Source of the DNA: Verrucomicrobiia bacterium
Lineage (GTDB): Bacteria > Verrucomicrobiota > Verrucomicrobiia > Limisphaerales > JADLHS01
Assembly (NCBI GenBank): GCA_026125285.1
Contig: JAHCLO010000002.1
Location: 211,115-275,114, forward strand
DNA length: 64,000 bases
Direction of reading: 5' to 3'
Under the pieces are notes generated by a model. The model saw only the letters and a list, made by a program, of their open reading frames with translations, searched no databases and had not been told where the DNA came from. The number at the start of each line of letters is the position of its first letter. Positions within the stretch are counted from its first letter, which is position 1. Shown piece by piece: positions 32,033 through 62,556 of the stretch. The position numbers were made by a program, and so were the translations under genes.

Positions 32033-32111
32033 ACTCCAGAAAGTGAGCTGTGCCCTGCTTTGAGGCGCGAGGGTGATTGCATTTGTTGCGCCCAGAGATA
32101 ATCTCCCGCGC

Positions 32112-33146
32112 ATGACATCCAAGCCAGAGAAGCCAGCGGTGGACCCCGAGTTGCGCCGCCGCGTGCAGGAGTTGATCGCCTTCAAAGGGGGTGGTTACAA
32201 CGAGGACGCCGTCACCGATATCATCGAGAACGCCCTCAAACTGCTCACCGACGTGAAGGACACTGGCGACGTGCGGGTCATCCAGACCGCCGTGCGCGAA
32301 CTGCGCTACGCCTACCGGCTGTTTGCCCCATATTCCCGAACGCGCAAAGTCACGATGTTCGGCTCCGCGCGCACCGCCCCGAGCAAGCAGGAATACCAGC
32401 ACGCCCTGGATTTCGGCCGGAAGATGGCGGCGGCCGGCTTCATGGTCATTACCGGCGCCGGACCGGGCATCATGCAGGCGGGGCACGAAGGGGCCGGGCC
32501 GGAAAGAAGCTTCGGCGTCAACATCCGCCTGCCCTGGGAACAGGCCGCCAACCCGGTCATCCGCGAGGACAAGAAGCTCGTCACCTTCAAATACTTCTTC
32601 ACCCGGAAGCTGATCTTCATCCGCCACTCGGATGCCATCGCGCTGTTCCCCGGCGGGTTCGGCACGATGGATGAGGGGTACGAGGCGCTCACGCTCATGC
32701 AAACGGGCAAGAGCCAGCTCATGCCCCTGGTACTGATTGACCGGCCGGGCGGCACGTATTGGAAGACCTGGGACAAACACGTGCGCGAACATCTGTTGCG
32801 CGATCAGTTGATTTCCCCGGACGACCTGAACCTCTATCGCATCACGGATGACACGGATGAAGCGGTCAAGCTCATCACCCGTTTCTACCGCAATTTTCAA
32901 TCAAGCCGCTTTGTGAAAGACCTGTTTGTCATCCGGCTCAAACACGCGCCCACCGATAGCGCGCTGGAAGCGATGAACGAGGACTTTGCCGACATCATCG
33001 TGGGCCCGCCCATCCGGCGGATTGAAGCCACGCCGGAGGAGCAGGAAGATACCGACCATTTGGAGTTGCCGCGCATCGCCTTCGGGTTCAACCGTCGGGA
33101 TTACGGCCGCCTGCGGCAGTTGGTGGATGTCCTGAACGGCCTCTGA
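32112..33146 (+). CDS. LOG-family (TIGR00730 Rossmann-fold nucleotide-binding / nucleotide 5'-monophosphate nucleosidase-like) protein
   Basis: Start set to ATG 32112. Motifs VTMFGSAR, VITGAGPGIMQAGHEGA and PGGFGTMDEGYEALTLMQTGK. Confidence 0.8.
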   Translation: MTSKPEKPAVDPELRRRVQELIAFKGGGYNEDAVTDIIENALKLLTDVKDTGDVRVIQTAVRELRYAYRLFAPYSRTRKVTMFGSARTAPSKQEYQHALDFGRKMAAAGFMVITGAGPGIMQAGHEGAGPERSFGVNIRLPWEQAANPVIREDKKLVTFKYFFTRKLIFIRHSDAIALFPGGFGTMDEGYEALTLMQTGKSQLMPLVLIDRPGGTYWKTWDKHVREHLLRDQLISPDDLNLYRITDDTDEAVKLITRFYRNFQSSRFVKDLFVIRLKHAPTDSALEAMNEDFADIIVGPPIRRIEATPEEQEDTDHLELPRIAFGFNRRDYGRLRQLVDVLNGL

Positions 33147-33158
33147 CTCGATTACGCT
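33113..33158 (+). repeat. 46-bp direct repeat, left copy (last 10 codons + stop of the LOG gene + 12 nt)
   Basis: GCGGCAGTTGGTGGATGTCCTGAACGGCCTCTGACTCGATTACGCT. 44/46 identical to 49451..49496. Confidence 0.9.
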
Positions 33159-33295
33159 GGGCGGCTTGGACCGAGAGAACCCGCCCTTGAGTACACAGCC
33201 GTCTCTGTTAGGACGCGCTCCCGCAACGTGTTGATCTGAACTGGTCCAGTAAGAACTGAGGCTTGGACTGTTTTTGACCCACCCACTGTGTTTGA

Positions 33296-36004
33296 ATGGC
33301 ACCCGGAATGACACAAACCCACGGGGAGTTTTGGGCGAAGACGACACCGGACGGCCAGCCGGGGATTTCGGTCCGCGACCATTGCCTGAACGTGGGCTGC
33401 GTGGTGGAGGCACTGGTTGCGCTGCTGTCACCGGCCGTTCAAGCCTTGCTTACTCCCGGCGCGGTAACACTGGCGGCGTTGCATGACGTCGGCAAGATCA
33501 CCATTGGCTTCCAAGCCAAGTGTCCTCCTTGGCTCGCACGACCGGATACGCCCAAAGTTTCTCGCGGCGAAATCACTCTGACCGTCTCCGATCATGCACT
33601 CGTAAGTCAGGTCTTTCTGCAACGACATCTTCCCCTGGTCGCACGACTTTGGGCCGTGGCCGTCGGGGCGCATCATGGCCGGCCGAAAGGCAGGAACAGG
33701 CAAACCGGCCTGGAAGCCTGCGCTGAATGGGCCGAAACACATCGCCGACAACTGGCCGAAGAACTCGCCGCGCTGTTCGGCGCGTTGCCAGTTACTTCAC
33801 CAGACACCCGGCTCGCTCCGCATCATTCCGACCTCTGGTTGCTGGCGGGCCTCATCACCGTCGCCGACTGGATTGGTTCGAATGAAACTTGGTTCGCGCC
33901 AGATCACGGCCTCCCGCTTGAGGCGGCGCGACAACAAGCCCGAACCGCGCTCGCCCAAATCGGCTGGCCGGGCGGCAAACTCAAAGCCACCGACTTCGCC
34001 GCCGCCTTCGCCACAGGCCGATCCACCGGCTTCACGCCGAATCCCGTCCAGGAAGCAGTTGCCAACGCCGCGGTGCAGACTCCCGGCATCGTCATCGTCG
34101 AAGGCCCGATGGGCTGCGGCAAGACCGAGGCCGCCTTGTTCGCCGCGCAGCAACTCATCGCGTCCGGTGCGAACCACGGCATTTACTTCGCCTTGCCCAC
34201 GCAAGTAACCAGCAACCGCATTCACCAACGCATCGGCACGTTCCTCCGCAACACCCTCGCGGATGAAGCTCCGCTCCGCCTCGCCCACGGCAACGCCTGG
34301 CTGGAGGATGATTTCGATCTGCGACTGCGCCCGGCGTTCACCAAAGTGGACCTCGGAAAGGAAGACGACCCGCGCGAAAGCACCCGCGAGGCCCGCTCCT
34401 GGTTCGCTTCCGCCAAGCAGGCGCTGCTCGCCACTTACGGCGTGGGCACGATTGATCAAGCACTGCAAGGCGTCGTGGCCGTGAAACATTTCTTCGTCCG
34501 CCGCTTCGCCCTCGCCGGGAAGGTCGTCATTCTCGACGAAGTTCACTCCTACGACATCTACACCGGCACGTTGGTCGCAGCGCTGGTCCGCGAACTGATG
34601 AACCTCCGCTGCTCTGTCATCATCCTCAGCGCCACGCTCACCGCCGAACGGCGCAAGGAATTGCTCAAGGAAGCCGGGATAACCGAAACCGAGTCACCGC
34701 CAGCCTACCCGCTCGTCACCGCCGGCATGAATGGCGAATGCCGCCATATTGCGCCCGAATGGAAGCCCCGCCCGCCCATCTCACTCCGTGCGGCGGTCAT
34801 TTCTGAGGCCGAAACCCTCGCCGAACTCATCCGCCGCGCCGAAGCCGGCCAGCATGTCCTCTGGATTCGCAACACGGTGGTCGAGGCGCAACCTTCGTTT
34901 CGCGAGGTCTGCAATGCAGTTCGCGAAGGCACGGTTCGCGTCGGCCTGCTGCACAGCCGTTTCCCCTTCCACCGGCGGGCCGAACTTGAAGACGAATGGC
35001 TGGAACTCCTCGGCAAGAATCGTCCTGCCGACGGCTCGGGCACAATTCTCATCGCCACCCAGGTCGTGGAACAGAGCGTGGACATTGACCTGGATTTCAT
35101 CGTTTCCGATCTCGCGCCCACGGACATGTTGCTTCAGCGGCTCGGACGGCTCTGGCGGCATGAACGCCCACACCGCGCCGCCGTCGAGCCTGAATTCTGG
35201 GTGCGCCTGCCGGAACTACCCGCGGATGCTGATGCCGCCGCGCTCAAAAAATCACTCGGCCGCAGCGCCCGTGTCTATGCGCCCTACGTCCTCCTGCGCA
35301 CGATGGCCGTCTGGCGACAACTCCCTGTAGCAGCCGACGTGAGTCGGCTCAAATCATCGGAAAGTCAGAGCGGACTCACGTCCGCTGCTACAAGCCTGGA
35401 AAACGAGCGCCGCTCTCACATCAACCTGCCTGCCGACATCCGCCCGCTGCTCGAAGCCACCTACGCTGAACCGGACGAAAACGAACCGGCAGCGTGGCGC
35501 GAACTGCACGAGGAATTGGAGAAGGAGAATCGAAAATTTGTGTTGAGCGCCGACTCCGTCATCCGAGTGCTGGGCACTCCATCGCGTGACGACAAGAAGG
35601 AGGGATTCCTCACCCGCCGCGAAGGCGCACCCACCACGCCGGTCGTGTTGCTCCGTTCCATCACCGGCGGACTCAACGGCCTCACGGTTCTCGTCGCGCT
35701 CGACGGCTCGCGCATTGAAATCAGCGAACACGAATGGCGACGCTCCCACGCCCGATTCCTGCACCAGTGGCTCGTCCGCGCCCCGCGCTGGATGATTCCC
35801 AAGAACGCCCCGCGCCCGCGCTGGCTCGATCTCCACGGCACGTCCGATGCCGTGGTCGCCGTAGTGCGCGACGATGGCCGTTGTCTGTTCGGCGATGAAG
35901 TTTCCGATATGCAATACGACCCGCGCGTCGGCATTTTTGCCGAACGCGCTCCCCAACCCACCCCGCAAACCTGGAAGGATGACGACGATGAATTTGACTC
36001 TTGA
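33296..36004 (+). CDS. cas3: CRISPR-associated helicase/nuclease Cas3 (HD + SF2 helicase), type I-E
   Basis: N-terminal HD region (..LAALHDVGKITIGFQAK.., GAHHGRP). Helicase motifs (EGPMGCGKTEAAL, VILDEVHSYD, ILSATL, IATQVVEQSVDIDLD). First gene of the cas operon. Confidence 0.9.
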   Translation: MAPGMTQTHGEFWAKTTPDGQPGISVRDHCLNVGCVVEALVALLSPAVQALLTPGAVTLAALHDVGKITIGFQAKCPPWLARPDTPKVSRGEITLTVSDHALVSQVFLQRHLPLVARLWAVAVGAHHGRPKGRNRQTGLEACAEWAETHRRQLAEELAALFGALPVTSPDTRLAPHHSDLWLLAGLITVADWIGSNETWFAPDHGLPLEAARQQARTALAQIGWPGGKLKATDFAAAFATGRSTGFTPNPVQEAVANAAVQTPGIVIVEGPMGCGKTEAALFAAQQLIASGANHGIYFALPTQVTSNRIHQRIGTFLRNTLADEAPLRLAHGNAWLEDDFDLRLRPAFTKVDLGKEDDPRESTREARSWFASAKQALLATYGVGTIDQALQGVVAVKHFFVRRFALAGKVVILDEVHSYDIYTGTLVAALVRELMNLRCSVIILSATLTAERRKELLKEAGITETESPPAYPLVTAGMNGECRHIAPEWKPRPPISLRAAVISEAETLAELIRRAEAGQHVLWIRNTVVEAQPSFREVCNAVREGTVRVGLLHSRFPFHRRAELEDEWLELLGKNRPADGSGTILIATQVVEQSVDIDLDFIVSDLAPTDMLLQRLGRLWRHERPHRAAVEPEFWVRLPELPADADAAALKKSLGRSARVYAPYVLLRTMAVWRQLPVAADVSRLKSSESQSGLTSAATSLENERRSHINLPADIRPLLEATYAEPDENEPAAWRELHEELEKENRKFVLSADSVIRVLGTPSRDDKKEGFLTRREGAPTTPVVLLRSITGGLNGLTVLVALDGSRIEISEHEWRRSHARFLHQWLVRAPRWMIPKNAPRPRWLDLHGTSDAVVAVVRDDGRCLFGDEVSDMQYDPRVGIFAERAPQPTPQTWKDDDDEFDS
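35326..35392. repeat. 67-bp palindromic hairpin element inside the cas3 coding sequence (read through in frame)
   Basis: TGTAGCAGCCGACGTGAGTCGGCTC (35326..35350) vs GAGCGGACTCACGTCCGCTGCTACA (35368..35392). Each arm also forms its own 6-bp hairpin (GCCGAC-GTGA-GTCGGC, GCGGAC-TCAC-GTCCGC). It encodes ..VAADVSRLKSSESQSGLTSAATS.. Confidence 0.75.
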
Positions 36005-37460
36005 ACCCTGGATTCCTGCGCTCCGCGCCGATGGCCGCCGCGACCTGTTCAGCCTGCAGGATCTTTTCGCCCAGGCCCACGAATTGCGCGACCTTGCCGT
36101 CAAGCCGCACGAACGCGTCGCCCTCATGCGCCTGCTGCTCTGCATCACCCAGGCCGCCCTGGATGGCCCGGCGGACGAGGCCGAATGGGAAACCTGCCAG
36201 CCACTCATCCAGCCGCGCGTCCGCGACTACCTGACCAAGTGGAAATCCGCGTTTGAGTTGTTCGGAGACGGACAGCGGTTTCTCCAAGTTCCAAATCTCA
36301 AGCCCGGCAAAGAATCCGATGAAGGTAACGCCATCACCAAGCTCGATCTCGCCCTGGCCACCGGCAACAACTCCACTCTGTTCGACAATTTTGCTGGTGA
36401 AGAACGGGCGCTCCACGCCGCCCGGACGGCCATCAGCCTGCTCACCTTCCAATGCTTTTCCCCCGGCGGACGCATCGGTGTGGCGAAGTGGAATGGCAAG
36501 GACACTGCCGGCAAGGGCTCAAGCAACCACGCCCCCTGCACCCCCTCCAGCATGGTTCACACATTCATCCTCGGAGAGAACTTACTGGCCACCATACATC
36601 GCAATTTGCTCACCAAGGAAAGCGCCATGTATGACTACGGCGCGGATCGTTGGGGCAAGCCCGTCTGGGAAATGCCCTGCGATCACGACGGCGATAAAGC
36701 CGCGCAAACCAACGCCACCCAGACCTATCTGGGCCGGCTCGTTCCGTTGAGCCGGACCATTCACCTGCACGAAGGCGCACGCGCGCTGATCCTCGCCAAC
36801 GGTCTCGACTATCCGATCTATCCCGCCTTCCGCGAAGCCACGGCCACCATCATCAATCGCAAGGACGAGCTTGCGGTTCTTCCCGCCTCCACTGCGCGCA
36901 GTTTGTGGCGACAATTGTCCGCCATCTCGGTCCAGCGTCGTGCGGGAGCGGACGCCGCCTGTGGCCCGCTTGCGTTGAATCACATTTCCGAAAACAACGA
37001 CACCACGCTGTGGGTTGGGGCGTTGGTCACCGACAAGGCCAAGATTGAGGATGTCGTCGAGTCCGCCTACGCGCTGCCGCCCGGCATGTTCACTGAGTTG
37101 GGTCGCGCCGCTTATGAACACGGGGTGGCCCACGCGGAGGAACGCGAAGGTGTGTTGATTCAGGCCGTCAAGGCCTACGCCGTTTCGCTCAAGATCGGCA
37201 ATCCCGCTTACGCCCGCGCCCGGCAACAGTTTTGGACGCGCGTTGAGCAGCACCTGACCGCTCTTTTCGACCTCGCCCGCAATCCTGATCTCGTCGCCAA
37301 CCTTGCGAACAGCGATTGGGGCAGAGCCGTCGCAGACGCGGCACGCGCGGCTTACGAACAATCCTGTCCGCGCCAGACGCCCCGCCAGATCGAAGCCTAC
37401 GCCCTCGGCCTGCGCAAACTCACCTATCGCCCGAAAGCAAACTCCGAAACCAAAGCCTGA
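35988..37460 (+). CDS. cas8e: Cascade large subunit Cas8e (Cse1/CasA)
   Basis: Start at ATG 35988 (MNLTLEPWIPALRADG.., the typical Cse1 N-terminus), overlapping the cas3 stop. ~490 aa. Positioned between cas3 and cse2. Confidence 0.85.
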   Translation: MNLTLEPWIPALRADGRRDLFSLQDLFAQAHELRDLAVKPHERVALMRLLLCITQAALDGPADEAEWETCQPLIQPRVRDYLTKWKSAFELFGDGQRFLQVPNLKPGKESDEGNAITKLDLALATGNNSTLFDNFAGEERALHAARTAISLLTFQCFSPGGRIGVAKWNGKDTAGKGSSNHAPCTPSSMVHTFILGENLLATIHRNLLTKESAMYDYGADRWGKPVWEMPCDHDGDKAAQTNATQTYLGRLVPLSRTIHLHEGARALILANGLDYPIYPAFREATATIINRKDELAVLPASTARSLWRQLSAISVQRRAGADAACGPLALNHISENNDTTLWVGALVTDKAKIEDVVESAYALPPGMFTELGRAAYEHGVAHAEEREGVLIQAVKAYAVSLKIGNPAYARARQQFWTRVEQHLTALFDLARNPDLVANLANSDWGRAVADAARAAYEQSCPRQTPRQIEAYALGLRKLTYRPKANSETKA

Positions 37461-37464
37461 GCTT

Positions 37465-38016
37465 ATGAGTGAAACCAAACGAACCCCGAAAGAGCGCGCC
37501 GCCGATTTCGTTGGCGCGTTGCGCCGCGCCGGCAACGACCGCGGCAAACTCGCCGCCCTCCGGCGCGGCCTCACCGACAACCCGCGTCTGCACGTGGACG
37601 CCTGGCCCGTCATCGCCAGCCTCGGCGGCGACATCGGCCAGTCCGCCTACGTGGCCATTGCCGCGCTGTTCGCCACGCATCCCAAAGATGACCCCAACTC
37701 GCGCAACTTCGGCGAGACCTGCCGCCGCATCGCGCAAGGCGACGGCAAGGACATCGCCGAAAGTTTCGAGCGCCGTTTCCGCCGCCTGCTCGCCTGCGAC
37801 AGCGTGGATGACGTCATCGGCCAGCTTCGTTCGTGGGTGCGCCTCGCCGCCAGCAAAGGCGTGGGTGTGAATTACGAAAACCTGTTCGCCGACCTCTGGA
37901 ACTGGCCGTGGTATGCGGACGACATCCGCGTGAAATGGGCCAAGTCCTTCTGGCAATCCGGCGAAGCCGCTTCCCCCGAAACTCCGCAAACCGCCAACCA
38001 ACCCGCCCTCACATGA
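37465..38016 (+). CDS. cse2: Cascade small subunit Cse2 (CasB/Cas11e)
   Basis: ATG 37465, 4 nt after the cas8e stop. 183-aa helical basic protein (..RGKLAALRRGL.., ..YENLFADLWNW..). Confidence 0.8.
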   Translation: MSETKRTPKERAADFVGALRRAGNDRGKLAALRRGLTDNPRLHVDAWPVIASLGGDIGQSAYVAIAALFATHPKDDPNSRNFGETCRRIAQGDGKDIAESFERRFRRLLACDSVDDVIGQLRSWVRLAASKGVGVNYENLFADLWNWPWYADDIRVKWAKSFWQSGEAASPETPQTANQPALT

Positions 38017-38681
38017 GCACTGCCATCCTTGAATCCCCCGTCGCCACGGCCACGCTGCATCTCACGCAGATTCTCGTTCCCTACGAGGACGCCGTCCGCC
38101 TCCATCGCATCCGCGACACCTACGACTGGCATCAACGCGTCTGGCAGGCGTTCGGCGGACGCGACGGTGCGCCGCGCGATTTTCTGATTCGCGTGGACCG
38201 CAAGGAGGAAGCTTATCGCGTCCTGATTCTTTCGCGCTCCGTGCCCGCCAAGCCCGATTGGTGTCCCACCGATTGCTTCGGCACGAAGGAAATCCCGGAC
38301 AGTTTCTTCGCCCATCCGCGCTACCGGTTCAGCCTGCTGGCCAATCCCACGAAGAAGCTCCGCGTGGACAACGCCGATGGCAGCCGCAAGAAGAATGGCC
38401 GTCGTGTGCCGCTGACGCAGCGCGAGGAACTGGTCGCCTGGCTGCAACGCAAAGCTGAAGCCTGCGGTTTCCGCATCAACGCCGATTCGCTCCGCACCAT
38501 CCCGCGTGGCCGGGAATTCTTCCACAAGGATGGCCGCTCGCACGGCACGCACACCGCCGTCGAGTTCCAGGGCGAACTCACCGTCACCGATTCCAAACAA
38601 TTTCGCGTCACTGTCGCCACCGGCATCGGCTCGGCCAAGGCCTTTGGCTTCGGCCTGCTCGTGCTCGCGCCTGTTTCCTGA
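38013..38681 (+). CDS. cas6e: crRNA endoribonuclease Cas6e (CasE/Cse3)
   Basis: ATG 38013 overlaps the cse2 stop (ATGA). C-terminal glycine-rich loop GIGSAKAFGFGLLVLAP. Contains ..FSLLANPTKK.. Confidence 0.8.
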   Translation: MSTAILESPVATATLHLTQILVPYEDAVRLHRIRDTYDWHQRVWQAFGGRDGAPRDFLIRVDRKEEAYRVLILSRSVPAKPDWCPTDCFGTKEIPDSFFAHPRYRFSLLANPTKKLRVDNADGSRKKNGRRVPLTQREELVAWLQRKAEACGFRINADSLRTIPRGREFFHKDGRSHGTHTAVEFQGELTVTDSKQFRVTVATGIGSAKAFGFGLLVLAPVS

Positions 38682-38753
38682 TCTTCCAACCTGCAACTTT
38701 TAGAACAATGGACAAAAGAATCTCCACCAGAATTGGCTGGAAACCAGATGCAC

Positions 38754-38907
38754 GGGGAGCGCACGCGCCTCGCGTGCAGCGGGGGACGCCCTCGTCCCCC
38801 GCATCCGAGCGCGCCATCGCGCAAGATTCTTTTCACAACGCGCGGTGGCGCGCGACGTTTCGACCGCGGGGGCGCGGTCGAATACACGCGAGGCGCGTGT
38901 GCTCCCC
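38754..38907. repeat. ~150-bp palindromic element, family C, copy 3 (diverged), in the cas6e-cas7e intergenic region
   Basis: Termini GGGGAGCGCACGCGCCTCGCGTG...CACGCGAGGCGCGTGTGCTCCCC. Nested internal palindromes (GGGGGACGCCCTCGTCCCCC; GCGCGCCATCGCGC..GCGCGGTGGCGCGC). Confidence 0.8.
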
Positions 38908-38984
38908 GGGAAACCTAACCCGCACCGTTTTGCTCCTGGCAAAAGTGCTTTCTGACAACATTTAACCAAACAAAAACAACAAAC

Positions 38985-40064
38985 ATGAAACTCATCGAAC
39001 TCCATATTCTGCAATCGTTCCCCGTCTCCTGCCTCAACCGCGACGATGTCGGTTCGCCCAAGACCGCCGTCTTCGGCGGCGTCAACCGCGCCCGCCTCTC
39101 CAGCCAGTCGCTCAAACGCGCCATCCGCGAATTCGCGCAGGACAACCTGCCCGACGCGAAGTTTGGCGGCGAGCGGACCAAACTCATCGTCCCACCGCTG
39201 GTGGACGCGTTGAAAAAACACGGCGTCACTGACGACAAGGCGGCATCGGAACACGCCGCCAACATCGCGGACAAACTTGCCAAGCTGGACGCGAAGTCCG
39301 GCAAGGACGGCGAACTGCCGCAGGTCGGCACGCTCACGTTCCTTGCGCCCTCGGAAATTGACTCGATTGCCCAACAAGTGGCGGCGCTGTTGAGGGAGAA
39401 CCCCAAGTCCAAGGACTACGAGAAGAAGCTCGATAAGTTTTGCAAAGAGGCTGCCCTGCTGGACGGCGCGGACATCGCCTTGTTCGGGCGCATGGCCGCC
39501 AGTCTGCCGTCTCTCACCCTTGAAGGGGCGGCCATGTTCAGTCACGCCCTATCCACACACAAAAGCGACAACGACCTTGATTTTTATTCCGCCGTGGACG
39601 ACCGCAAACCCAAGGACGATGACGCTGGCGCAGGCATGATTGGCACGCTGGAGTTTTCCTCCGCCGTCTATTACCGCTACGCCGCCGTCAATCTCGACCT
39701 GCTGGCGGACAAGGACCATCTGGCCAGACTTTCCGCGGCGGAACGCCGCAAGGTTGTGGATGCCTTCATCCGCGCCACGCTCCAGGCCGTGCCGGGCGCG
39801 CGGAAGAACTCCATGAACGCCCACACGCTGCCGGGATACGTGCTCGGCACGTTCAAATCCGCCGGCCAGCCCGTGCAATTGATCAACGCGTTCGAGAATC
39901 CCGTCCGGCCCAAGTCCGGTTTGCTTGACGCTTCGATTGAGGCGTTGAAGACGCATCACGCCAAACTCAAGGACACCTGGGGCATCACCTGCGACACCGA
40001 AGTCGCCATCCCGGACGTCAACCTCAACGCCTTCTGCGAGGCCCTCACGAAACATGTCCACTGA
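38985..40064 (+). CDS. cas7e: Cascade backbone subunit Cas7e (CasC/Cse4)
   Basis: MKLIELHILQSFPVSCLNRDDVGSPKTAVFGGVNRARLSSQSLKRAIR, the canonical Cas7e N-terminus. 359 aa. Confidence 0.9.
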   Translation: MKLIELHILQSFPVSCLNRDDVGSPKTAVFGGVNRARLSSQSLKRAIREFAQDNLPDAKFGGERTKLIVPPLVDALKKHGVTDDKAASEHAANIADKLAKLDAKSGKDGELPQVGTLTFLAPSEIDSIAQQVAALLRENPKSKDYEKKLDKFCKEAALLDGADIALFGRMAASLPSLTLEGAAMFSHALSTHKSDNDLDFYSAVDDRKPKDDDAGAGMIGTLEFSSAVYYRYAAVNLDLLADKDHLARLSAAERRKVVDAFIRATLQAVPGARKNSMNAHTLPGYVLGTFKSAGQPVQLINAFENPVRPKSGLLDASIEALKTHHAKLKDTWGITCDTEVAIPDVNLNAFCEALTKHVH

Positions 40065-40779
40065 AGCCTGTCTCGCTTTGCTGCTCGACGGCCCGATGCA
40101 ATCGTGGGGACACGCCTCGCGTTTCGAGCGTCGCACCACCGCGCTGCATCCCACGCGCAGCGGGGTTCTCGGCATCATCGCCGCCGCGCTGGGGATTGAT
40201 AAACATGCCGCCGATGAAATGACGCAATTGAAACGGTTCGAAGATCTGCGCGTGACGACCGTGAAACTGGATCGCCAGACCCCGCGCGGCGGTCCGTTGC
40301 CCATTCAGCGGCTGGAGGATTATCACACCGTCACTGGCATCCGGCGCGCCAGCGGCAAGGTGGATGAAGAAGCGACCGTGCAAACGTATCGCCACTACCT
40401 CCTCGACGCCCGGTTCGGCGTGTTACTCGAAGGACCGGCGGCGTTGCTCGAAGAAATTGCCACTGCGCTGCGCAACCCGAAATGGGGCGTGTGGCTGGGC
40501 CGCAAATGCTGCCTGCCCGCCTGCCCCGTGCTCGCCGCACCGCCCGGCGAACGCGCCGACGCATGGCGGCAATTGCTCCAACGCGCCGGTTTCACCGGCA
40601 CGGAAGTCCTCGAACAGTTCGATCATGTCCTCGAAGTGCTTCCTTCCGAGCCGGGCGCGGACATCCTGGAAGACACTCCGGTCGGATTCGGCCAGCCCAT
40701 TGGCGAACGCCACGCCCCGCGCTGGATTCGCCGCGTGCCCAAATCCGCAGTCATCAATCCGCAATCCACAATTGACTGA
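40054..40779 (+). CDS. cas5e: Cascade subunit Cas5e (CasD)
   Basis: ..LLLDGPMQSWGHASRFERRTT..PTRSGVLGIIAAALGI.. signature. Overlaps the cas7e 3' end. Confidence 0.9.
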   Translation: MSTEACLALLLDGPMQSWGHASRFERRTTALHPTRSGVLGIIAAALGIDKHAADEMTQLKRFEDLRVTTVKLDRQTPRGGPLPIQRLEDYHTVTGIRRASGKVDEEATVQTYRHYLLDARFGVLLEGPAALLEEIATALRNPKWGVWLGRKCCLPACPVLAAPPGERADAWRQLLQRAGFTGTEVLEQFDHVLEVLPSEPGADILEDTPVGFGQPIGERHAPRWIRRVPKSAVINPQSTID

Positions 40780-40802
40780 TGCCTTCGTTCGAAAGCCCAA
40801 CC

Positions 40803-41159
40803 TTACAGAAAGATGATCTGCCCTTGGGCGTCCTCGGGCGTCGCCGCTTTGGCCAGGGCTTCCAGGTCGGCAATGCAGCGCCCGATGGACAACTCAAGCT
40901 GCCGGGCAAAGACCACTGTCGCGAACGGCCGGCCGGTTCGCTGGCGGCGCGCCGCTTCAACCAGCAAATCCTCGTCTTGCGAACAGAGCAGCCGCCCCAG
41001 CGTGGTGGCGCGATCCAACAAATCGGGATCCAACAAATCGGAATCCGTGAACCGGGTCGCGCCGTCGTCCTAGGCGGTCAACACCTCCACTCCGCGGCGG
41101 CGCAGTCCGCGGGTGATCGGACGCGGCACATGCACGTCCATGTAGAGGCCGAGGCTCAT
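40803..41159 (-). pseudogene. DUF5615/PIN-like (Mut7-C-type) toxin gene inactivated by an in-frame TAG, with a 15-bp tandem duplication
   Basis: Minus-strand reading from ATG 41159 gives MSLGLYMDVHVPRPITRGLRRRGVEVLTA*DDGATRFTDSDLLDPDLLDRATTLGRLLCSQDEDLLVEAARRQ... The stop is at 41070..41072. The tandem units are 41013..41027 and 41028..41042. The start overlaps the DUF433 stop (ATGA). Confidence 0.6.
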
Positions 41160-41464
41160 GCGCCACGGCGTAGGGCGCGCTGGGCCAGAGGTGAGGCCGG
41201 CGTCGCGGTGCGCAGGGTCGCCAGACGTTCATCTTGTCGCTCAATTTCAGCATCCAACTCCGGCTGATGACCGTAATACCACGCCAGCGCGGCATAGACC
41301 TGCGCCAACGTCAGGTGCGGATGGTTCTCTTGAATCGTCTCGGCGCTCCAGCCATACGCCAGGTGATCGAGAACAATTTCCACGACCTTGACGTTGGTGT
41401 CGTCCACCCACGGGCGGCCCTGCTCATCCAACCGAATGTGCGGCATTGTTGCTGTGCTCGGCAT
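41156..41464 (-). CDS. DUF433 domain protein (antitoxin-like partner of DUF5615/PIN-like toxins)
   Basis: 102 aa. ..VKVVEIVLDHLAYGWSAETIQENHPHLTLAQVYAALAWYY.. matches the DUF433 pattern. Opposite strand to the cas genes. Confidence 0.65.
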   Translation of the reverse strand: MPSTATMPHIRLDEQGRPWVDDTNVKVVEIVLDHLAYGWSAETIQENHPHLTLAQVYAALAWYYGHQPELDAEIERQDERLATLRTATPASPLAQRALRRGA

Positions 41465-41572
41465 GGCGGCAATTTATTCATGCCGGCTTCCCGATGCAAG
41501 GTGACACTCCTCACCTTCCTCAAAATGCCCTGCCCAAAATCGTCAACCGTAACTCCGCAATCGTAAATCGAA

Positions 41573-42460
41573 ATGCCTCTCTTTGAACGCCCCCCGCTCG
41601 AAACCCTCGCGCCCGCCAAGGATCGCTGGACGCCTATCTACCTCGAACACGGTCGCCTGGAAGTGGACGATTCCAGCATCAAATGGATCGGCGCGGATGG
41701 GACGCTCTGCCGCATTCCCGCAGCCACCGTTTCTGCGTTGGTGCTCGGCCCCGGCACCACGGTGACGCACGCCGCCATGAAAGCCTGTGCGGAGAGCAAC
41801 ACCCCCGTTTGCTGGACTGGCGAGGAATGCCTGCGCTTCTACGCCTTCGGCCTCACGCCCAATCACACCAACGACATGCCCCGCCTTCATGCCGAGGCCT
41901 GGGCCGACAAACGCCGCCGCACCCGCATCGCCCGCGCCATGTTCAAAATGCGCTTCCCGGACGTGGATGTGACCGAGAAATCCGTCAAGGAACTGCGCGG
42001 CATGGAAGGGTTGCGCGTCCGCGCCCTCTACACCGAACTCGGCCTCAAACACGGCGTCACCTGGAAAGGCCGCAATTACGACCGCCAGAACTGGGACACC
42101 GCCGACGATATCAATCGCGCCCTCTCCGCCGCCAACGCCAGTCTCTACGCCCTCTGCGCGGCAGTGATTTGTTCGCTCGGCTACGTGCCCAGCCTCGGCT
42201 TCGTTCACGATGCCGGCACGCTGCCGTTCGTCTATGACGTGGCCGACCTCTACAAACACCTCACCAGCATTCCCGCCGCCTTCCTCGCCGTGCGGCAGGA
42301 CCCGAAGAACGAAGGCGACCTGGTGCGGAAGTTGTTCAAACAGCGTGTCGAGGAAGAACGACTGCTCCAGCGGATGCCGAAAGACCTGGCCGCCTTGTTT
42401 GAAACCGACGAAGTCGCTCCTCTCCAGGCTGGCGCTCGACCTCCTTCCGCCATCACTTGA
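41573..42460 (+). CDS. cas1: CRISPR integrase Cas1, type I-E
   Basis: 295 aa. ..IYLEHGRLEVDDSSIKWI.., ..GLRVRALY.., ..GFVHDAGTLPFVYDVADLYK.. motifs. Confidence 0.9.
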   Translation: MPLFERPPLETLAPAKDRWTPIYLEHGRLEVDDSSIKWIGADGTLCRIPAATVSALVLGPGTTVTHAAMKACAESNTPVCWTGEECLRFYAFGLTPNHTNDMPRLHAEAWADKRRRTRIARAMFKMRFPDVDVTEKSVKELRGMEGLRVRALYTELGLKHGVTWKGRNYDRQNWDTADDINRALSAANASLYALCAAVICSLGYVPSLGFVHDAGTLPFVYDVADLYKHLTSIPAAFLAVRQDPKNEGDLVRKLFKQRVEEERLLQRMPKDLAALFETDEVAPLQAGARPPSAIT

Positions 42461-42484
42461 TCACCGATTACTGATTACCGGCCA

Positions 42485-42784
42485 ATGACTGTTCTCGTCG
42501 CCAACGACACCCCGCCCGCCATTCGCGGCATGTTGAAACGCTGGTTCGTCGAACCCAAACCCAACGTCTTCGTCGGCACCGTCAACCGGCGCACCCGCGA
42601 CAAGGTGCTCGACTACGTCAAACGCAACGCCGAGGGCATGAGCCTGCTCATCCTCACCAGCGAACCCAACTGCCAGGGCTTCAAAATCCAACGCTGGGGC
42701 GAACCCGACCGCCGCGACGTCGAAATCAGCGGCCTCTGGCTCGTGGCGGAACAATGGGTGGAGGAGGAAAATCGCCCCTTCTGA
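42485..42784 (+). CDS. cas2: Cas2, type I-E
   Basis: 99 aa. MTVLVANDTPPAIRGMLKRWFVEPKPNVFVGTVNRRTRDKV.., the typical Cas2e. Confidence 0.9.
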   Translation: MTVLVANDTPPAIRGMLKRWFVEPKPNVFVGTVNRRTRDKVLDYVKRNAEGMSLLILTSEPNCQGFKIQRWGEPDRRDVEISGLWLVAEQWVEEENRPF

Positions 42785-42813
42785 TTCCCGGAAATAGCTC
42801 GAAATCGTCCGCG

Positions 42814-42826
42814 CAACCTGTTGATA
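42814..42826 (-). promoter_or_regulatory. IHF-consensus site in the CRISPR leader
   Basis: The minus strand reads TATCAACAGGTTG, a perfect match to WATCAANNNNTTR. It lies 8-20 nt upstream of repeat 1, comparable to the leader IHF site used by type I-E integration in E. coli. Confidence 0.4.
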
Positions 42827-42833
42827 TTTCAGG

Positions 42834-45800
42834 GTTCTCCCCACCCGCGTGGGGATGGTCCGCCATCCGAGAATCTATCCACCCACGCGAGCCAGTTCTC
42901 CCCACCCGCGTGGGGATGGTCCGACCGCTCCTGCCACTTCTGCGGCGGTGAAGGCGTTCTCCCCACCCGCGTGGGGATGGTCCGCGCGCGGCTGTTCGGC
43001 ACGGAGCACTGGGAGGGTTCTCCCCACCCGCGTGGGGATGGTCCGTAGTTGCCGCCCCAGATTATTTGCTTGGCGCAGTTCTCCCCACCCGCGTGGGGAT
43101 GGTCCGTCATCCGAGAATCTATCCACCCACGCGAGCCAGTTCTCCCCACCCGCGTGGGGATGGTCCGATTCGACCCTTCTTGGTTCTCCTCGTGGTGGCG
43201 TTCTCCCCACCCGCGTGGGGATGGTCCGTGAACCCGGAATATCCAAACCACTGCTACACGGTTCTCCCCACCCGCGTGGGGATGGTCCGTGATCGGCGCT
43301 TCGTTCTCGAAGTCATCGGCCGTTCTCCCCACCCGCGTGGGGATGGTCCGAAATACGCGTGGCGCGTGGGCCGCGTCCATGCGTTCTCCCCACCCGCGTG
43401 GGGATGGTCCGGCTGCCGCGTGCGCGCCTTCTTCGATCCATACGTTCTCCCCACCCGCGTGGGGATGGTCCGAGTCGGTGAGTCCTTTTTGGTTGCGGTA
43501 GGCTGTTCTCCCCACCCGCGTGGGGATGGTCCGGCAAGCGCGTTCCCCCATCCTGGATGCGCCTGGTTCTCCCCACCCGCGTGGGGATGGTCCGAAATTT
43601 ACGGCCTCTGAAAACACGAGTCCGGCGTTCTCCCCACCCGCGTGGGGATGGTCCGGGTTGGCCCCAACCGTTGGTACTTCGTGAACTGTTCTCCCCACCC
43701 GCGTGGGGATGGTCCGCTATTTCCGACCACAACCGCAACAACTAAAAAGTTCTCCCCACCCGCGTGGGGATGGTCCGGATTCTTCAATCGTGTTTGGACG
43801 CCCATGTCGGTTCTCCCCACCCGCGTGGGGATGGTCCGACAGGCCGCTGAAACGGCAACAATTCTTTGATGTTCTCCCCACCAGCGTGGGGATGGTCCGA
43901 ATGGAGTTGTCCCCGTCCGCCGTGGTGAGCCGTTCTCCCCACCCGCGTGGGGATGGTCCGGGCGGTCTTTATCGGATTGGTTTTCGCGTTTGGTTCTCCC
44001 CACCCGCGTGGGGATGGTCCGTTCCGGCGGCGGCGATTGGCCAAACTGCGCCTCGTTCTCCCCACCCGCGTGGGGATGGTCCGCCGATCTGCGCACCCTG
44101 TTCCGCTCCCTGCCGGTTCTCCCCACCCGCGTGGGGATGGTCCGGTTTTGTCGGTTGGAACGTCCACGGCCCGCAGGTTCTCCCCACCCGCGTGGGGATG
44201 GTCCGAAAACTCCTGGCGCGACTACCGCAAAGGGCACGTTCTCCCCACCCGCGTGGGGATGGTCCGAAAATTCAACGGCGTGAGGTGAACTTCGCGTTGT
44301 TCTCCCCACCCGCGTGGGGATGGTCCGCGTCCAGTCCCAAACGCACGCACTTAGCCAGCGTTCTCCCCACCCGCGTGGGGATGGTCCGGCTTTGGCGAGG
44401 TCCGCGCGGAAATGAAACGGGTTCTCCCCACCCGCGTGGGGATGGTCCGTTCCTTCCGCAAATCGTCCAGTTTCGCGTAGAGTTCTCCCCACCCGCGTGG
44501 GGATGGTCCGTCATCATATTCGATATGGCGATTTACTGTCGCGTTCTCCCCACCCGCGTGGGGATGGTCCGCGACTTCTTTCAGCCAAGCGGCTGAGATG
44601 AGGGTTCTCCCCACCCGCGTGGGGATGGTCCGGCCGAAATCGTCTCCGTCTGCTTCAAAACATCGTTCTCCCCACCCGCGTGGGGATGGTCCGACGATGG
44701 CGCTCCGTCACCTGCTCGCGGAGTAGTTCTCCCCACCCGCGTGGGGATGGTCCGGACTGACCGACTCGCAATTCGCGACACGCTTCGTTCTCCCCACCCG
44801 CGTGGGGATGGTCCGATTCCCGGATGCGCATCGCCACCGCCATCGCCGTTCTCCCCACCCGCGTGGGGATGGTCCGGCCGGCGACGACGCGATGGACAAA
44901 GCTATTTCGTTCTCCCCACCCGCGTGGGGATGGTCCGCGTCATGGCCCTTTACGATCTTTTGCACAATCGTTCTCCCCACCCGCGTGGGGATGGTCCGCC
45001 TTCTTCAATCGTGTTTGGACACCGATGTCGGTTCTCCCCACCCGCGTGGGGATGGTCCGGACTGAACGATTCCCAGTTCGCCACCCGCTTCGTTCTCCCC
45101 ACCCGCGTGGGGATGGTCCGGTCTGACTGGCGCTGGCAGCGATGGGGGCGTTGTTCTCCCCACCCGCGTGGGGATGGTCCGAGCGATCCGCCACACTAGA
45201 AATGCTCACACAAGTTCTCCCCACCCGCGTGGGGATGGTCCGCAGCCGAAACGCTGCGCCCCCGGCGGTTGCCAGTTCTCCCCACCCGCGTGGGGATGGT
45301 CCGTAAACCGGGGCGTGCCGGTACTCCGCGAGCAGGTTCTCCCCACCCGCGTGGGGATGGTCCGAACGTTATGTATTTCCATGTGATCGGTTGACAGTTC
45401 TCCCCACCCGCGTGGGGATGGTCCGCAATGACACTGGCGAGGATGCCGCGCGACACCGTTCTCCCCACCCGCGTGGGGATGGTCCGCGAAATCCTCCTCC
45501 GAGAGATAGAAGGTTGAGGTTCTCCCCACCCGCGTGGGGATGGTCCGCCATCGCCATCGTCCTGCTCTTCGCGTTCACGGTTCTCCCCACCCGCGTGGGG
45601 ATGGTCCGTTTAACTCCCATTTGACGGCGAACGTGAACGCGTTCTCCCCACCCGCGTGGGGATGGTCCGCTAATAGAAACTACGAGAATATGGAGCGCCA
45701 AGTTCTCCCCACCCGCGTGGGGATGGTCCAGGTCGCCGATCCAGTCAACGTCCTGCGGGTTTTGTTCTCCCCACCCGCGTGGGGATGGTCCGACACATGG

Positions 45801-46524
45801 TTTTGAAGTTGGCCTCCCATTTCAGTTCTCCCCACCCGCGTGGGGATGGTCCGAACCCCCACCTCCTGACCTACCGCGGCAACTGGTTCTCCCCACCCGC
45901 GTGGGGATGGTCCGTTTACTCGGCCAGCGGGATATGACCCGTTCCGGTTCTCCCCACCCGCGTGGGGATGGTCCGCCCTCGCCATCGTCCTGCTCTTCGC
46001 GTTCACGGTTCTCCCCACCCGCATGGGGATGGTCCGCCGATCTGCGCACCCTGTTCCGCTCGCTGCCGGTTCTCCCCACCCGCGTGGGGATGGTCCGTAA
46101 CCCGCCGCACCAAACAATGACCAACCATTGTTCTCCCCACCCGCGTGGGGATGGTCCGTGTCACCATCCTGAAATGAAACCATGAAACGAGTTCTCCCCA
46201 CCCGCGTGGGGATGGTCCGGTGACACCAATTTGCGTGCGATCTCCGCGATTGTTCTCCCCACCCGCGTGGGGATGGTCCGATCACCTGTGCCGCGTCCGC
46301 TTGTGGCTCGTTGTTCTCCCCACCCGCGTGGGGATGGTCCGCTGTTGAGGCTGATCGTAGGCTGTTTACTGAGGTTCTCCCCACCCGCGTGGGGATGGTC
46401 CGTCGCCGCGCCACGAAAGAAACGCAGGATGCCCGTTCTCCCCACCCGCGTGGGGATGGTCCGGCTTGCGGTTGGGTGCGGAGTTTGGGTTATTTGTTCT
46501 CCCCACCCGCGTGGGGATGGTCCG
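42834..46524 (+). CRISPR. type I-E CRISPR array, leader-proximal part: repeats 1-61
   Basis: 29-nt repeat GTTCTCCCCACCCGCGTGGGGATGGTCCG (stem CCCCAC/GTGGGG, loop CCGC) at a 61-nt period. First copy at 42834, 61st at 46496. Spacers are 32 nt (33 nt at 44022 and 45731). Variant repeats at 43871 (C>A), 45702 (last base A) and 46008 (G>A). Orientation follows the E. coli-type repeat (..GGGGAT..CCG 3'). Confidence 0.97.
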
Positions 46525-46536
46525 AACTTCGATTAT

Positions 46537-48266
46537 CCTAAAAACGGCGGTTGAAGAAGCTGGTCAAGCGCGGGGAAGGCTGATTTTGTTGGAGCATGTT
46601 ACTGCCACCGACTTCCATGCCGTCTCACCCTGCGGGTGAGCCATCACCAGACCCCCTTTCCACGTTACTACCCAGCTCTGGCGCGTTGCTGCCGGCGCGC
46701 GTTCCGTTGGACCTGCATGGCCAGCGGATTTACGTGGAATGGGATCCCCACGCTCCGGTGACGCCGCTGGGACAGTTGGTCTATTTCAGCCAGTTCCTGG
46801 CCACCGCCGGACTGTTTGGAGAGTGGGTGGCCGACTGTCCGCTCCACTACACCAGCCCCAACGCCCCGGAGCGGGCTGATGTGCTGGGCACGATTCTGCT
46901 CTCCATTCTGGCGGGCAACCGGCGTTATGCCCACGTGACGGCGCTGCGGGGCGACACCGTCAATCCCCAGGGCTTGGGCATGAGCCGGGTGATGAGCGAG
47001 GACGCGGTGCGGCGGGCCTTCCAGGACGAGCCGTCCGCACCCTTGGAACAATGGCAGCAACAACATCTGTTGCGCAGTGTCGAACCGGTGCTCCGGGAAG
47101 AATGGATTTGCGATCTGGATGTGACCATCAAGACCGTGTACGGCCGGCAGGAAGGCGGCCAGGTGGGTTACAATCCTCACAAACCCGGACGAGCGGCGCA
47201 CGCCTATCACACGTTTTTCATCTCCCGGCTGCGGTTGGCGTTGGATGTGGTGGTGGCCCCGGGCAAGGAATTTCACAGCCGGGCGGTGAGCCAAACCTTC
47301 TGGCCCTGGTGGGACAAACTGCCGGCCTCCTGCCGGCCCAAGCTGGTGCGGGCCGATTGCGGCTTTGGCAACGAGCATTTCATGCTCGACTGTGAAAGCC
47401 ACGGCCAGCCGTATCTGTTTCGCCTGCGCCAAAGCCGGGGCGGGCAGCGCCTGATTGAGCGATTGAGCCGCCAGGGGCCGTGGAACGAGTGCGGCCAGGG
47501 ATGGCAAGGCCGGGAAGATTCCTTGCGCTTGCAGGGCTGGAGCCGATCCCGGCGGGTGATCGTGTTGCGGCGGCGGGTGTCGTCCCCGGCGGTCCCGGAA
47601 CTGACCGATGGTTTGCAGCAGCCGCAGTTGATGAATGTGGAGGCCGTCGAGCCGTATGAATACACGCTTCTGGGGACCAACACCGATTGGGAGTTGGCGG
47701 GCTTGGCGCGGCTGTATCGTGAGCGGGCCGACAGCGAGAACACGATTGACGAACTCAAGCGGCAATGGGGCTGGGGCGGATTTGTGACGAAGGATTTGCT
47801 GCGCTGCCAGGTGGCGGCGCGCAACGTGGCGTTGATTTACAACTGGTGGAGTCTGTTTGTGAGGTGCGTGGAGCCGCAGCGTCCGCGGGAAGCGGTGACC
47901 AGCCGTCCGTTGATGCTCAGTGCGATCGGGCGGGAGGTGCGCCACGCGGGCCAAACGACGGTGGTGCTGACCAGCACGCATGCGGAAGCCAGCCGGGTGC
48001 AGCGACTCTTGACCGAGGTGAGTTTGTTTTTGAGCGGGCTGAGGAATACTGCGGAGCAGTTGAGTCCAGCGCGGTGCTGGGAGCGGATTTGGGAACGGAT
48101 TTTGACACCCTTCCGCATCCTGGAAGCGGCCAGCCGCACGTGGTTCGGACAATTGGCCCGGTTGCCGGCCTGACCGGGGCCGGATTTCGACCAAAAGTTC
48201 CGCCGATCCGGGTCGCAAGTCGCCCCGGACCGCTCCCGTTCTGTCACTTCAACCGCCGTTTTTAGG
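46537..48266 (+). mobile_element. IS1380-like insertion sequence (1,730 bp) inserted in spacer 61
   Basis: Perfect 20-bp terminal inverted repeats CCTAAAAACGGCGGTTGAAG (46537..46556 / 48247..48266). 5-bp target duplication ATTAT (46532..46536 / 48267..48271). Single transposase ORF. Second copy at 62557. Confidence 0.9.
46596..48173 (+). CDS. DDE transposase, IS1380-like (IS4 superfamily)
   Basis: 525 aa. ..[33 protein letters not shown].., ..[14 protein letters not shown].., ..[20 protein letters not shown].. follow the D-D-E context I recall for IS1380-type enzymes. Confidence 0.7.
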
Positions 48267-48291
48267 ATTATGTGCGCGAGGAAGTGGTGGC

Positions 48292-49417
48292 GTTCTCCCC
48301 ACCCGCGTGGGGATGGTCCGCTGCATCGGCATCTGCCCGAGCCAGATTTCAAGTTCTCCCCACCCGCGTGGGGATGGTCCGTCAAGTGCGCGGCCATCGC
48401 CCGACTTCACACGGTTCTCCCCACCCGCGTGGGGATGGTCCGAACACCGTACCTCAAAATGAGGGACAGGGGGGGTTCTCCCCACCCGCGTGGGGATGGT
48501 CCGTGTTCCACACCGCGCACCTTTCACCGCTACCTGTTCTCCCCACCCGCGTGGGGATGGTCCGCACGACACCTTGAAGGTAGAACCAGTCGCACCGTTC
48601 TCCCCACCCGCGTGGGGATGGTCCGCTTTGACGGGCAGAAGTTGCGTCTGAGAACCTGTTCTCCCCACCCGCGTGGGGATGGTCCGCGAGCTTTCGACAT
48701 TCTGCGTCTGCGGTAAAAGTTCTCCCCACCCGCGTGGGGATGGTCCGACGTAATCCAGATAATTGTTGGACCTGTATTGGTTCTCCCCACCCGCGTGGGG
48801 ATGGTCCGACTCCGGCACGGCCACCGCCGCCACCGAATGTGTTCTCCCCACCCGCGTGGGGATGGTCCGGCCCACATTTCCGTGCGCACCGCTTTCGCCT
48901 GGTTCTCCCCACCCGCGTGGGGATGGTCCGTTACACCTGGTGCGGCGCTCGCGATTCTGTTCGTTCTCCCCACCCGCGTGGGGATGGTCCGGCATGGCGG
49001 CGCTTGAAGCCATGAAACAAGACGTTCTCCCCACCCGCGTGGGGATGGTCCGTGCGGCGGGGTTGCCGGCGAATCATTGTGGACGTTCTCCCCACCCGCG
49101 TGGGGATGGTCCGCAGAAATACTGCGTGGACTGCCAGAAGCGACAGTTCTCCCCACCCGCGTGGGGATGGTCCGCTGGGATGATTAGCGACTAAACGGAG
49201 CGAGGGTTCTCCCCACCCGCGTGGGGATGGTCCGTTGTTTACAAAAAGCGCGTGAGAAAAATGCGCGTTCTCCCCACCCGCGTGGGGATGGTCCGTTTGG
49301 AACACCCCCACCGCAGGCCGCTTGCAGGTTCTCCCCACCCGCGTGGGGATGGTCCGCAGCCGAAACGCGGCACCCCAGGCGGCTGCCAGTTCTCCCCACC
49401 CGCGTGGGGATGGTTAC
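48292..49417 (+). CRISPR. type I-E CRISPR array, distal part: repeats 62-80
   Basis: 19 further repeats (48292 ... 49389). One 31-nt spacer (49175..49205). The terminal repeat is degenerate (..GATGGTTACG). Confidence 0.97.
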
Positions 49418-49450
49418 GTCAGGAGGACCGAAATGCATCGCTTACTCACC

Positions 49451-49496
49451 GCGGCAGTTGGTGGATGTTCTGAACGGTCTCTGACTCGATTACGCT
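49451..49496 (+). repeat. 46-bp direct repeat, right copy (orphan duplicate of the LOG gene 3' end)
   Basis: GCGGCAGTTGGTGGATGTTCTGAACGGTCTCTGACTCGATTACGCT. It differs from 33113..33158 only at two synonymous third-codon positions. Confidence 0.9.
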
Positions 49497-49506
49497 CCGC
49501 CGCAAA

Positions 49507-59309: not shown

Positions 59310-59314
59310 ATGCT

Positions 59315-62555: not shown

Positions 62556-62556
62556 A

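Follow-up and report, generated by a model that had tools for sequence, protein, structure and literature searches.

A complete type I-E CRISPR-Cas locus in the 64,000-nt stretch of Verrucomicrobiia contig JAHCLO010000002.1 that was analysed here (referred to as the window in the following) is enclosed by two 46-bp direct repeats, which duplicate the 3′ end of a LOG-family (TIGR00730) gene. Comparison with the closest relative found shows that the enclosed block is a discrete 16,292-bp insertion at the junction between the LOG gene and a convergent GNAT acetyltransferase gene, the insertion point falling within the final 34 nt of LOG. A previous reading of the window (the original prediction) had described the locus as an island flanked by attachment (att) sites. 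The comparisons support this reading as far as the insertion is concerned; the repeats may plausibly be att sites and are treated as putative ones throughout.

The left copy of the 46-mer GCGGCAGTTGGTGGATGTCCTGAACGGCCTCTGACTCGATTACGCT (33113–33158, plus strand, attL-like) runs on from the intact LOG gene (32112–33146, plus strand; Pfam Lysine_decarbox/LDcluster4), whose last 34 nt it contains. The right copy (49451–49496, plus strand, attR-like) is an orphan LOG 3′ end and runs on into the native LOG-GNAT spacer. Direct reading and a pattern search gave 44/46 identical positions, and a repeat finder returned the same pair (33113/49451), in full agreement with the repeats originally described. 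Since the LOG stop codon TGA occupies 33144–33146, the 46-mer spans 1 nt, the last 10 codons (RQLVDVLNGL), the stop and 12 nt of spacer. With this stretch on both sides, LOG remains intact at the left border, and its end recurs as an orphan at the right one. The two mismatches are C/T differences at positions 19 and 28 of the 46-mer, both at third codon positions (GTC/GTT and GGC/GGT), and renewed reading corroborated that they are synonymous. LOG homologues with up to 96% identity carry the same C-terminus, and they assign the window to Verrucomicrobiota. At both copies the adjoining sequence diverges at once on either side, so that the abrupt end of homology noted before holds. Between the right copy and the stop codon of the GNAT gene (49507–50076, minus strand; Pfam Acetyltransf_1) lie 10 nt, and the interval between the copies (33159–49450) amounts to 16,292 bp; both values agree with the earlier ones. 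A dispersed repeat family, which the original prediction had named as a possible refutation, was not encountered: with up to three mismatches allowed, only the two copies were matched in the window and none in 100 shuffles, and low-stringency BLAST found no third or partial copy within the 64 kb. Among about 170 fetched loci the 46-mer was seen solely at orthologous LOG 3′ ends. Rfam families gave no matches at the junctions; at the left one, a scan for promoters and terminators was likewise negative.

The decisive test of the insertion was the empty site which had been predicted for relatives without the locus. Such a site was found in L001 (JGI metagenome contig, 3300048839), the closest relative, whose LOG is 96% identical to that of the window on the amino acid level and approximately 90% on the nucleotide level. 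Both share the neighbourhood of a FAD-oxidase gene, a 160-aa open reading frame (ORF), Host_attach and LOG. In L001, LOG and the orthologous GNAT gene adjoin in convergent orientation at a distance of 22 nt; the LOG end occurs once, and CRISPR-Cas is missing. In the blastn alignments L001 9990–11074 corresponds to window 32062–33146 (90%) and L001 11041–11666 to window 49451–50076 (84%). As these segments overlap in L001, the last 34 nt of its LOG match both window copies. Homology to the right flank of the window begins exactly at 49451, the first base of the right repeat, and removal of the insert together with one repeat copy from the window leaves a LOG-GNAT spacer of 22 nt, equal to that of L001. 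The block is thus present in one genome and absent at the same site in a close relative, as expected of an island. Synteny with L001 is limited to window 27382–33146 and 49451–50076. It stops at about 50300, right of GNAT and about 800 nt from the right repeat, where a second rearrangement breakpoint is located: the window continues with two small ORFs followed by a 2,299-aa ORF without Pfam domains, and L001 with two M16 peptidases and a giant LTD/CotH protein on the other strand.

A Cas1-anchored scan with one genome per species comprised 80 loci, mostly from Verrucomicrobiota. Their gene order is that of the window where genes are visible (cse2 was not mapped in them). Both flanks were visible in 25 loci, for which the DNA upstream of cas3 was compared with the DNA downstream of cas2. 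Four of these 25 loci carry significant bracketing same-strand direct repeats of their own, with a length of 29–62 nt and a sequence unique to each locus. The repeat of L008 (62/57 nt) includes a terminator hairpin beside an FKBP gene, that of L020 (39 nt) equals positions 1–39 of tRNA-Leu(taa), that of L025 (29 nt) has a tyrosine-recombinase gene directly beside its left copy, and that of L062 is a perfect 29-nt repeat in a complete chromosome (OZ244652.1). The limits of the L020 repeat are the exact 5′ end of the tRNA and a point within its anticodon arm; duplication of the 5′ half of a tRNA rather than of its 3′ half is unusual for integrative elements. The intact tRNA gene of L020 lies at 2333–2418 and the orphan copy of its first 39 nt at 15454–15492 at the far cassette end, altered at the universally conserved U33. 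In L054, a divergent cassette adjoins the 5′ end of tRNA-Leu(taa) at 2710–2794, the same tRNA end as in L020, the two loci belonging to different metagenome-assembled genomes (MAGs) of Chthoniobacterales. Altogether, tRNA genes were found 182–425 nt from the cassette ends of L007/L170, L029, L054 and L020, with the 3′ ends of tRNA-Met and tRNA-Asn facing the array ends of L007/L170 and L029. The L025 repeat resembles a T-arm/acceptor end and is tentatively read as a tRNA-like 3′ end; Rfam detected no truncated tRNA or tmRNA there. In L008, L020 and L062 there is no space for an integrase between the repeats, and no integrase was found just outside those of L020 or L062. In addition, L008 contains a 43-nt inverted repeat (93%; 2474–2516 and 15370–15412), about 150 nt inside the left cassette end and about 50–90 nt inside the right one, which has no counterpart in the other bracketed cassettes.

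The original prediction had also proposed a search for the same junctions beside other type I-E loci. This search was negative, as the 46-mer was not found there and none of the 80 Cas1-anchored loci adjoins LOG or GNAT. Related genomes hold the cassette elsewhere. In GCA_048499395.1 (the same MAG as L002; LOG 92% identical) the LOG site is unoccupied and LOG has a different neighbour; its I-E cassette (L168) is located between the genes for dihydroorotate dehydrogenase (DHO_dh) and fumarase. The cassettes most similar to that of the window are L168 and L172/L011 (GCA_011525685.1; cas3 at 10001), which occupy the same DHO_dh/fumarase site with common upstream synteny, L011/L172 being the closest. 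The homology of related cassettes with the window begins only about 40 nt upstream of cas3: of the non-coding left island arm (33159–33295, plus strand, 137 nt) only the last ~40 nt (33256–33295) are common to them, as a cas3 upstream motif. The right island arm, a 33-nt trailer (49418–49450, plus strand), is unique to the window. Transposon-like ends were considered for the cassettes and rejected, their termini being neither common nor inverted. An empty site for L020 was sought via the flanking polysaccharide lyase, and the nearest relative obtained was 50% identical.

As to the origin of the duplication, we favour the view that a circular cassette integrated at the 3′ end of LOG in a Campbell-type event, catalysed by a recombinase which acted in trans or has since been lost, and we regard this reading as lying slightly on the probable side. 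The cassette would enter as a circle that brings along a further LOG 3′ end, and a single conservative crossover with the chromosomal LOG 3′ end would generate the attL- and attR-like direct repeats. The attP-type junction of the circle would then read trailer...CTTACTCACC + 46-mer + GGGCGGCTTGG..., which can also be written ...GCATCGCTTACTCACC + 46-mer + GGGCGGCTTGGACC..., and the attB-type junction LOG...46-mer...CCGCCGCAAATCA. The recombinase would not be encoded by the island; it would be supplied in trans by another element or would have been lost later. The block would accordingly represent a non-autonomous element, similar to a cis-mobilizable element (CIME), whose only cargo is CRISPR-Cas, and recombination between the 44/46-identical copies would precisely delete the immune system and restore the LOG-GNAT junction. 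The duplication restores a gene end, as is the case with prophages, islands and other elements whose integration sites are tRNA genes or the 3′ ends of genes. The Campbell-type model is preferred because the duplications of the family coincide with gene or tRNA ends, because tRNA genes are strongly over-represented at the cassette borders, because one member of the family (L025) has an integrase at its repeat, and because the location of the cassette varies between related genomes.

A number of results weigh against such a site-specific integration. The att part of the original prediction did not find the support that the insertion received from L001 and from the four other bracketed I-E loci: no core-type inverted repeat is present within the 46-mer, for which a tyrosine-recombinase core was accordingly rejected, and the orphan junction of L020 likewise has no symmetric core. 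Moreover, no shared or inverted terminal sequences were found among the five bracketed cassettes, and the integrase is absent from four of the five (window included), which would be odd if its loss were accidental. The island arms are very short (137 and 33 nt) and can hardly accommodate arm-type sites or what might be left of an integrase gene. In the remainder of the window, a scan of the ORFs with a length of 220 aa or more did not reveal a recombinase, either. At LOG itself, neither an orphan LOG end nor cas genes were observed in 65 other metagenome LOG loci (those that extend for 500 nt or more beyond the 3′ end of the gene), and no integrase family had more than one match among 124 ORFs situated up to about 4.5 kb downstream of LOG. 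The idea that islands generally insert at the LOG 3′ end was rejected on these grounds. The 46-mer is absent from the viral contigs searched, the cassettes at the DHO_dh site have no bracketing repeat, and no sign of a foreign origin was detected in the base composition of the island. Finally, the empty site of L001 may reflect a site that was never occupied or one from which the block was precisely excised, two histories which the comparison cannot separate. In either of them, the CRISPR-Cas block of the window behaves as a single unit bounded by the repeats.

Among the alternatives, an illegitimate capture appears rather unlikely, although part of the evidence is in line with it. Foreign linear DNA would have been joined at a staggered double-strand break or copied by template switching in the course of replication or repair, gap filling would have duplicated the 46 bp in the manner of a long target-site duplication, and both mismatches would have arisen later. 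The lack of a recombinase, of core repeats and of conserved island ends fits this process, and so do the widely variable lengths of the bracketing repeats (29, 29, 39, 46 and 57/62 nt), the observation that the LOG end is no recurrent target, and the location of the window and L008 sites between convergent genes, where random insertion is best tolerated. However, the duplications match functional gene ends (L020 at the exact tRNA 5′ end, the window over the LOG stop), an integrase stands at the repeat of one family member, and tRNA genes occur beside the cassettes far more often than predicted from their share of a genome, which is roughly 0.1%. We further know of no bacterial process that duplicates 30–60 bp around a 16-kb insert without transposon ends; long duplications of the IS1634/IS1549 type require the ends of an insertion sequence (IS), and the borders of the island carry none. 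A RecA-type homologous single crossover, which we consider decidedly unlikely, would have used a longer LOG fragment on an incoming circle or plasmid, followed by trimming of the right copy to 34 nt. The donor lineage would already have held the cassette next to LOG, and a deletion may have removed the vector or integrase by the trailer. Two diverged functional LOG alleles would be expected to differ by synonymous transitions, which both differences between the copies are; homology is offered by the LOG C-terminus and the underlying DNA, both of them strongly conserved in relatives; and the right arm of just 33 nt without a homologue resembles a possible deletion scar. Yet two events plus a LOG-adjacent donor are needed, which was not seen in the 80 Cas1-anchored loci or in the LOG loci fetched from metagenomes (65 of which reach 500 nt or further past LOG). 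Two mismatches are too few to fix the origin of the alleles, and relatives gave no ancestral states at positions 19 and 28 by which a donor and a recipient copy, as originally proposed, could be told apart. One-sided homology-facilitated illegitimate recombination, moreover, normally deletes recipient DNA instead of duplicating it.

Three further explanations were assigned much smaller probabilities. It is very improbable that the I-E cassettes of Verrucomicrobiota are self-contained mobile units without a dedicated integrase, which insert via their own Cas1-Cas2, acting on the entire locus, or via a host pathway; each insertion would then duplicate 29–62 bp and so rebuild the gene or tRNA end that it had interrupted, and CRISPR-Cas would move from one chromosomal site to another as a minimal cassette. 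Self-integration of the cassette by its own Cas1-Cas2 in a casposase-like manner, with ruler-spaced strand transfers duplicating the target, seems hardly credible. It draws on the fact that Cas1 is the sole integrase-type enzyme in the island, on the 29-nt repeats of two related cassettes, which have the length of the CRISPR repeat, and on the preference of casposons for tRNA genes and gene 3′ ends. Opposed to this, the duplication measures 46 nt in the window and 39 and 57/62 nt in other cassettes instead of 29 nt, terminal inverted repeats or conserved ends are missing, the targets are unlike a leader-repeat junction, and a tyrosine integrase adjoins the repeat of L025, which is one of the two cassettes with the 29-nt length. 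Similarly small is the chance of an assembly artefact, in which the orphan copy or the junction would be a chimera of strain variants produced by a metagenome assembler. The window apparently stems from a MAG-type contig (472,895 bp), and its copies differ at just two sites, as strain variants might. The orphan copy, however, joins the array trailer on its left, inside LOG coding sequence, and the native spacer on its right, which is no simple graph error; the copies are not identical and thus no collapsed repeat; and the same architecture is encountered in four independent assemblies, including the complete chromosome of L062.

Returning to the favoured Campbell-type integration, the closest known counterpart is GI-24 of Vibrio cholerae and V. 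metoecus, in which a type I-E locus resides on an excisable genomic island with its own integrase and attL/attR, and whose excision (attP circle and attB) was demonstrated by PCR (PMC6360697). As in GI-24, a type I-E locus forms a unit of about 17 kb which is present or absent at the same site among relatives and is flanked by direct repeats. The island of the window differs in that it lacks an integrase and has CRISPR-Cas as its sole cargo and a host-like composition, and its excision would be a prediction. Measured by the features of GI-24-type islands (PMC6360697), flanking repeats with a putative att role are found at the exact borders of the insert; an internal integrase gene and a distinct base composition were not observed. 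CIMEs have kept attL/attR and lost the genes for integration and transfer; they are defined as decayed integrative and conjugative elements (ICEs) or integrative and mobilizable elements (IMEs), and their usual arrangement is a tandem with an ICE or IME at the same att site (PMC5704250, PMC10201445). The island shares with them direct repeats that bracket it at a gene 3′ end, the absence of recombination and transfer genes, and a predicted reliance on the integrase of another element. In contrast to CIMEs, it has no ICE or IME partner, remnant or third repeat copy within the 64-kb window, the att function of its 46-mer is putative, and its phylum is Verrucomicrobiota. Like the classical elements with att sites at tRNA genes or gene 3′ ends, the island has a duplication which spans a gene end and keeps the gene intact; among its relatives, L020 uses a tRNA-Leu gene and L025 has a tyrosine integrase beside its repeat. 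It departs from them in the absence of an integrase, and L020 does so in duplicating the 5′ half of the tRNA and not the usual 3′ part. Casposons are Cas1-dependent self-synthesising transposons with terminal inverted repeats, a PolB gene and 14–15-bp target duplications. Like the island, they encode Cas1 and lie between duplications of the target, with tRNA genes or the 3′ ends of genes as preferred sites; the island has neither terminal inverted repeats nor a PolB gene nor duplications of 14–15 bp. The short target duplication of fixed length that marks transposons and casposons was not found, as the duplication comprises 46 nt here and 29–62 nt in the related loci.

CRISPR-Cas on att-flanked islands is already known; new are the integrase-less, cargo-only form delimited to the base, and the recurrence of brackets around related cassettes, including the duplication of a tRNA 5′ half. 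To our knowledge, the movement of whole CRISPR-Cas loci is known only via plasmids, phages, Tn7-like transposons and integrase-bearing islands. The unit of gain or loss is set here to the base, namely 137 nt, the cas operon, the array, 33 nt and one 46-bp gene end, and similar brackets recur around related Verrucomicrobiota cassettes, mostly without an integrase. If the repeats are working att sites, CRISPR-Cas would constitute a cargo-only, trans-mobilised element; if they are not, long target duplications which restore a gene still call for a mechanism. The 46-bp repeats would also offer a ready route for the precise loss of immunity, which bears on the patchy occurrence of CRISPR-Cas in closely related genomes.

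With respect to age and origin, the comparison of GC content and codon usage of 33159–49450 with the flanks, which had been suggested as a check, gave no foreign signal. The GC content of the island is 0.627 as compared to 0.58–0.62 in the flanks, the GC content at third codon positions (GC3) is similar, and the tetranucleotide correlation between island and flanks (0.92–0.96) is in the range obtained for flank versus flank. This host-like composition, together with the colonisation of the island by an IS and by a host element resembling a miniature inverted-repeat transposable element (MITE) and with the 2/46 differences between the repeats, indicates that the insertion is not brand new or that the donor was a close relative. 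A donor cannot be named, since the nearest database Cas3 is only 82% identical; exact matches to the GNAT and Cas3 proteins of the window were not found in the contig index. On plasmids, Cas1 was at most 42% identical, and the best cassette matches on viral contigs did not exceed 42% either. The original prediction, itself cautious as to the mechanism, that no integrase lies between the repeats was borne out: Cas1 and the IS transposase are the only recombinases among the identified island ORFs, none of which is a tyrosine or serine recombinase, and genes of ICEs or IMEs were not found within the 64 kb.

The content of the insert was confirmed by Pfam and array analysis as originally listed, with all cas genes, a toxin-antitoxin pair, the array and an IS; a host MITE is also included, and the 16,292-bp interval holds nothing else. 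All eight type I-E cas genes are present in the order cas3-cse1-cse2-cas6e-cas7-cas5-cas1-cas2, and with the adjacent array of 29-nt repeats and 32-nt spacers this identifies the locus as type I-E CRISPR-Cas. The genes, which lie on the plus strand unless stated otherwise, are cas3 (33296–36004; Cas3_HD, Cas3-like_C_2), cse1/cas8e (35874–37460; CRISPR_Cse1; ORF limits, the true start being probably later), cse2/cas11 (37303–38016; CRISPR_Cse2; ORF limits, domain from residue 83), cas6e (37833–38681; CRISPR_assoc PF08798; ORF limits, domain from residue 76), cas7 (38985–40064; Cas_CT1975), cas5 (40054–40779; Cas_Cas5d), cas1 (41573–42460; Cas_Cas1) and cas2 (42485–42784; Cas_Cas2CT1978). Between cas5 and cas1, genes for a DUF5615 (PIN-like) toxin (40803–41159, minus strand) and a DUF433 antitoxin (41156–41464, minus strand) are inserted; the former has an in-frame TAG and is probably a pseudogene. 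In the closest related cassette the same slot (40803–41464, minus strand, in the window) is filled by a PhdYeFM/PIN pair instead of DUF433/DUF5615; it corresponds to 17988–18642 in L172 and 15282–15742 in L168, and relatives also have small ORFs between cas6e and cas7. As many related loci show gaps of 0.7–1 kb at this position, the comparison suggests that toxin-antitoxin modules enter the cas operon preferentially at the cas5-cas1 junction.

The CRISPR array (42834–49417, plus strand) consists of 80 repeats of 29 nt, 76 of them identical, and 75 of its 79 spacers are 32 nt long. Its leader-proximal end adjoins cas2 and its terminal repeat is degenerate in the last 3 nt. None of the spacers has a match in the window, LOG and GNAT included, and a self-targeting or spacer-guided insertion was rejected for this reason. 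One spacer is interrupted by an IS1380-family IS (46537–48263, plus strand) with a 5-bp target duplication (ATTAT) and the terminal inverted repeat CCTAAAAACGGCGGTTGAAG; the element is active in this genome. A second copy (62557–64000), which passes the window end, is 99.93% identical. As the two copies are in direct orientation, recombination between them could delete 48264–62556. A composite transposon formed by them was rejected, since they flank this segment and not the island.

The MITE or repetitive extragenic palindromic (REP)-like element is palindromic, about 150 nt long and has the ends GGGGAGCGCACGC...GCGTGCGCTCCCC. Two copies (30155–30306 and 31884–32033, 94% alike) are located in intergenic spacers, and the corresponding spacers of L001 are shorter. 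A diverged copy which aligns with both (~38753–38905, without assigned strand) fills the unusually long gap between cas6e and cas7, indicating that host repeats have colonised the island. A second family of short repeats (25377–25452, 26204–26285 and 30962–31090) with the mutually complementary halves GGCAGGGCGCGTCACTCCGTGCGC and GCGCACGGAGTGACGCGCCCTACC looks like a hairpin-forming REP. Finally, the GC skew is steadily negative (−0.08 to −0.18) over the cas operon and array (33500–46000) and near zero in both flanks.

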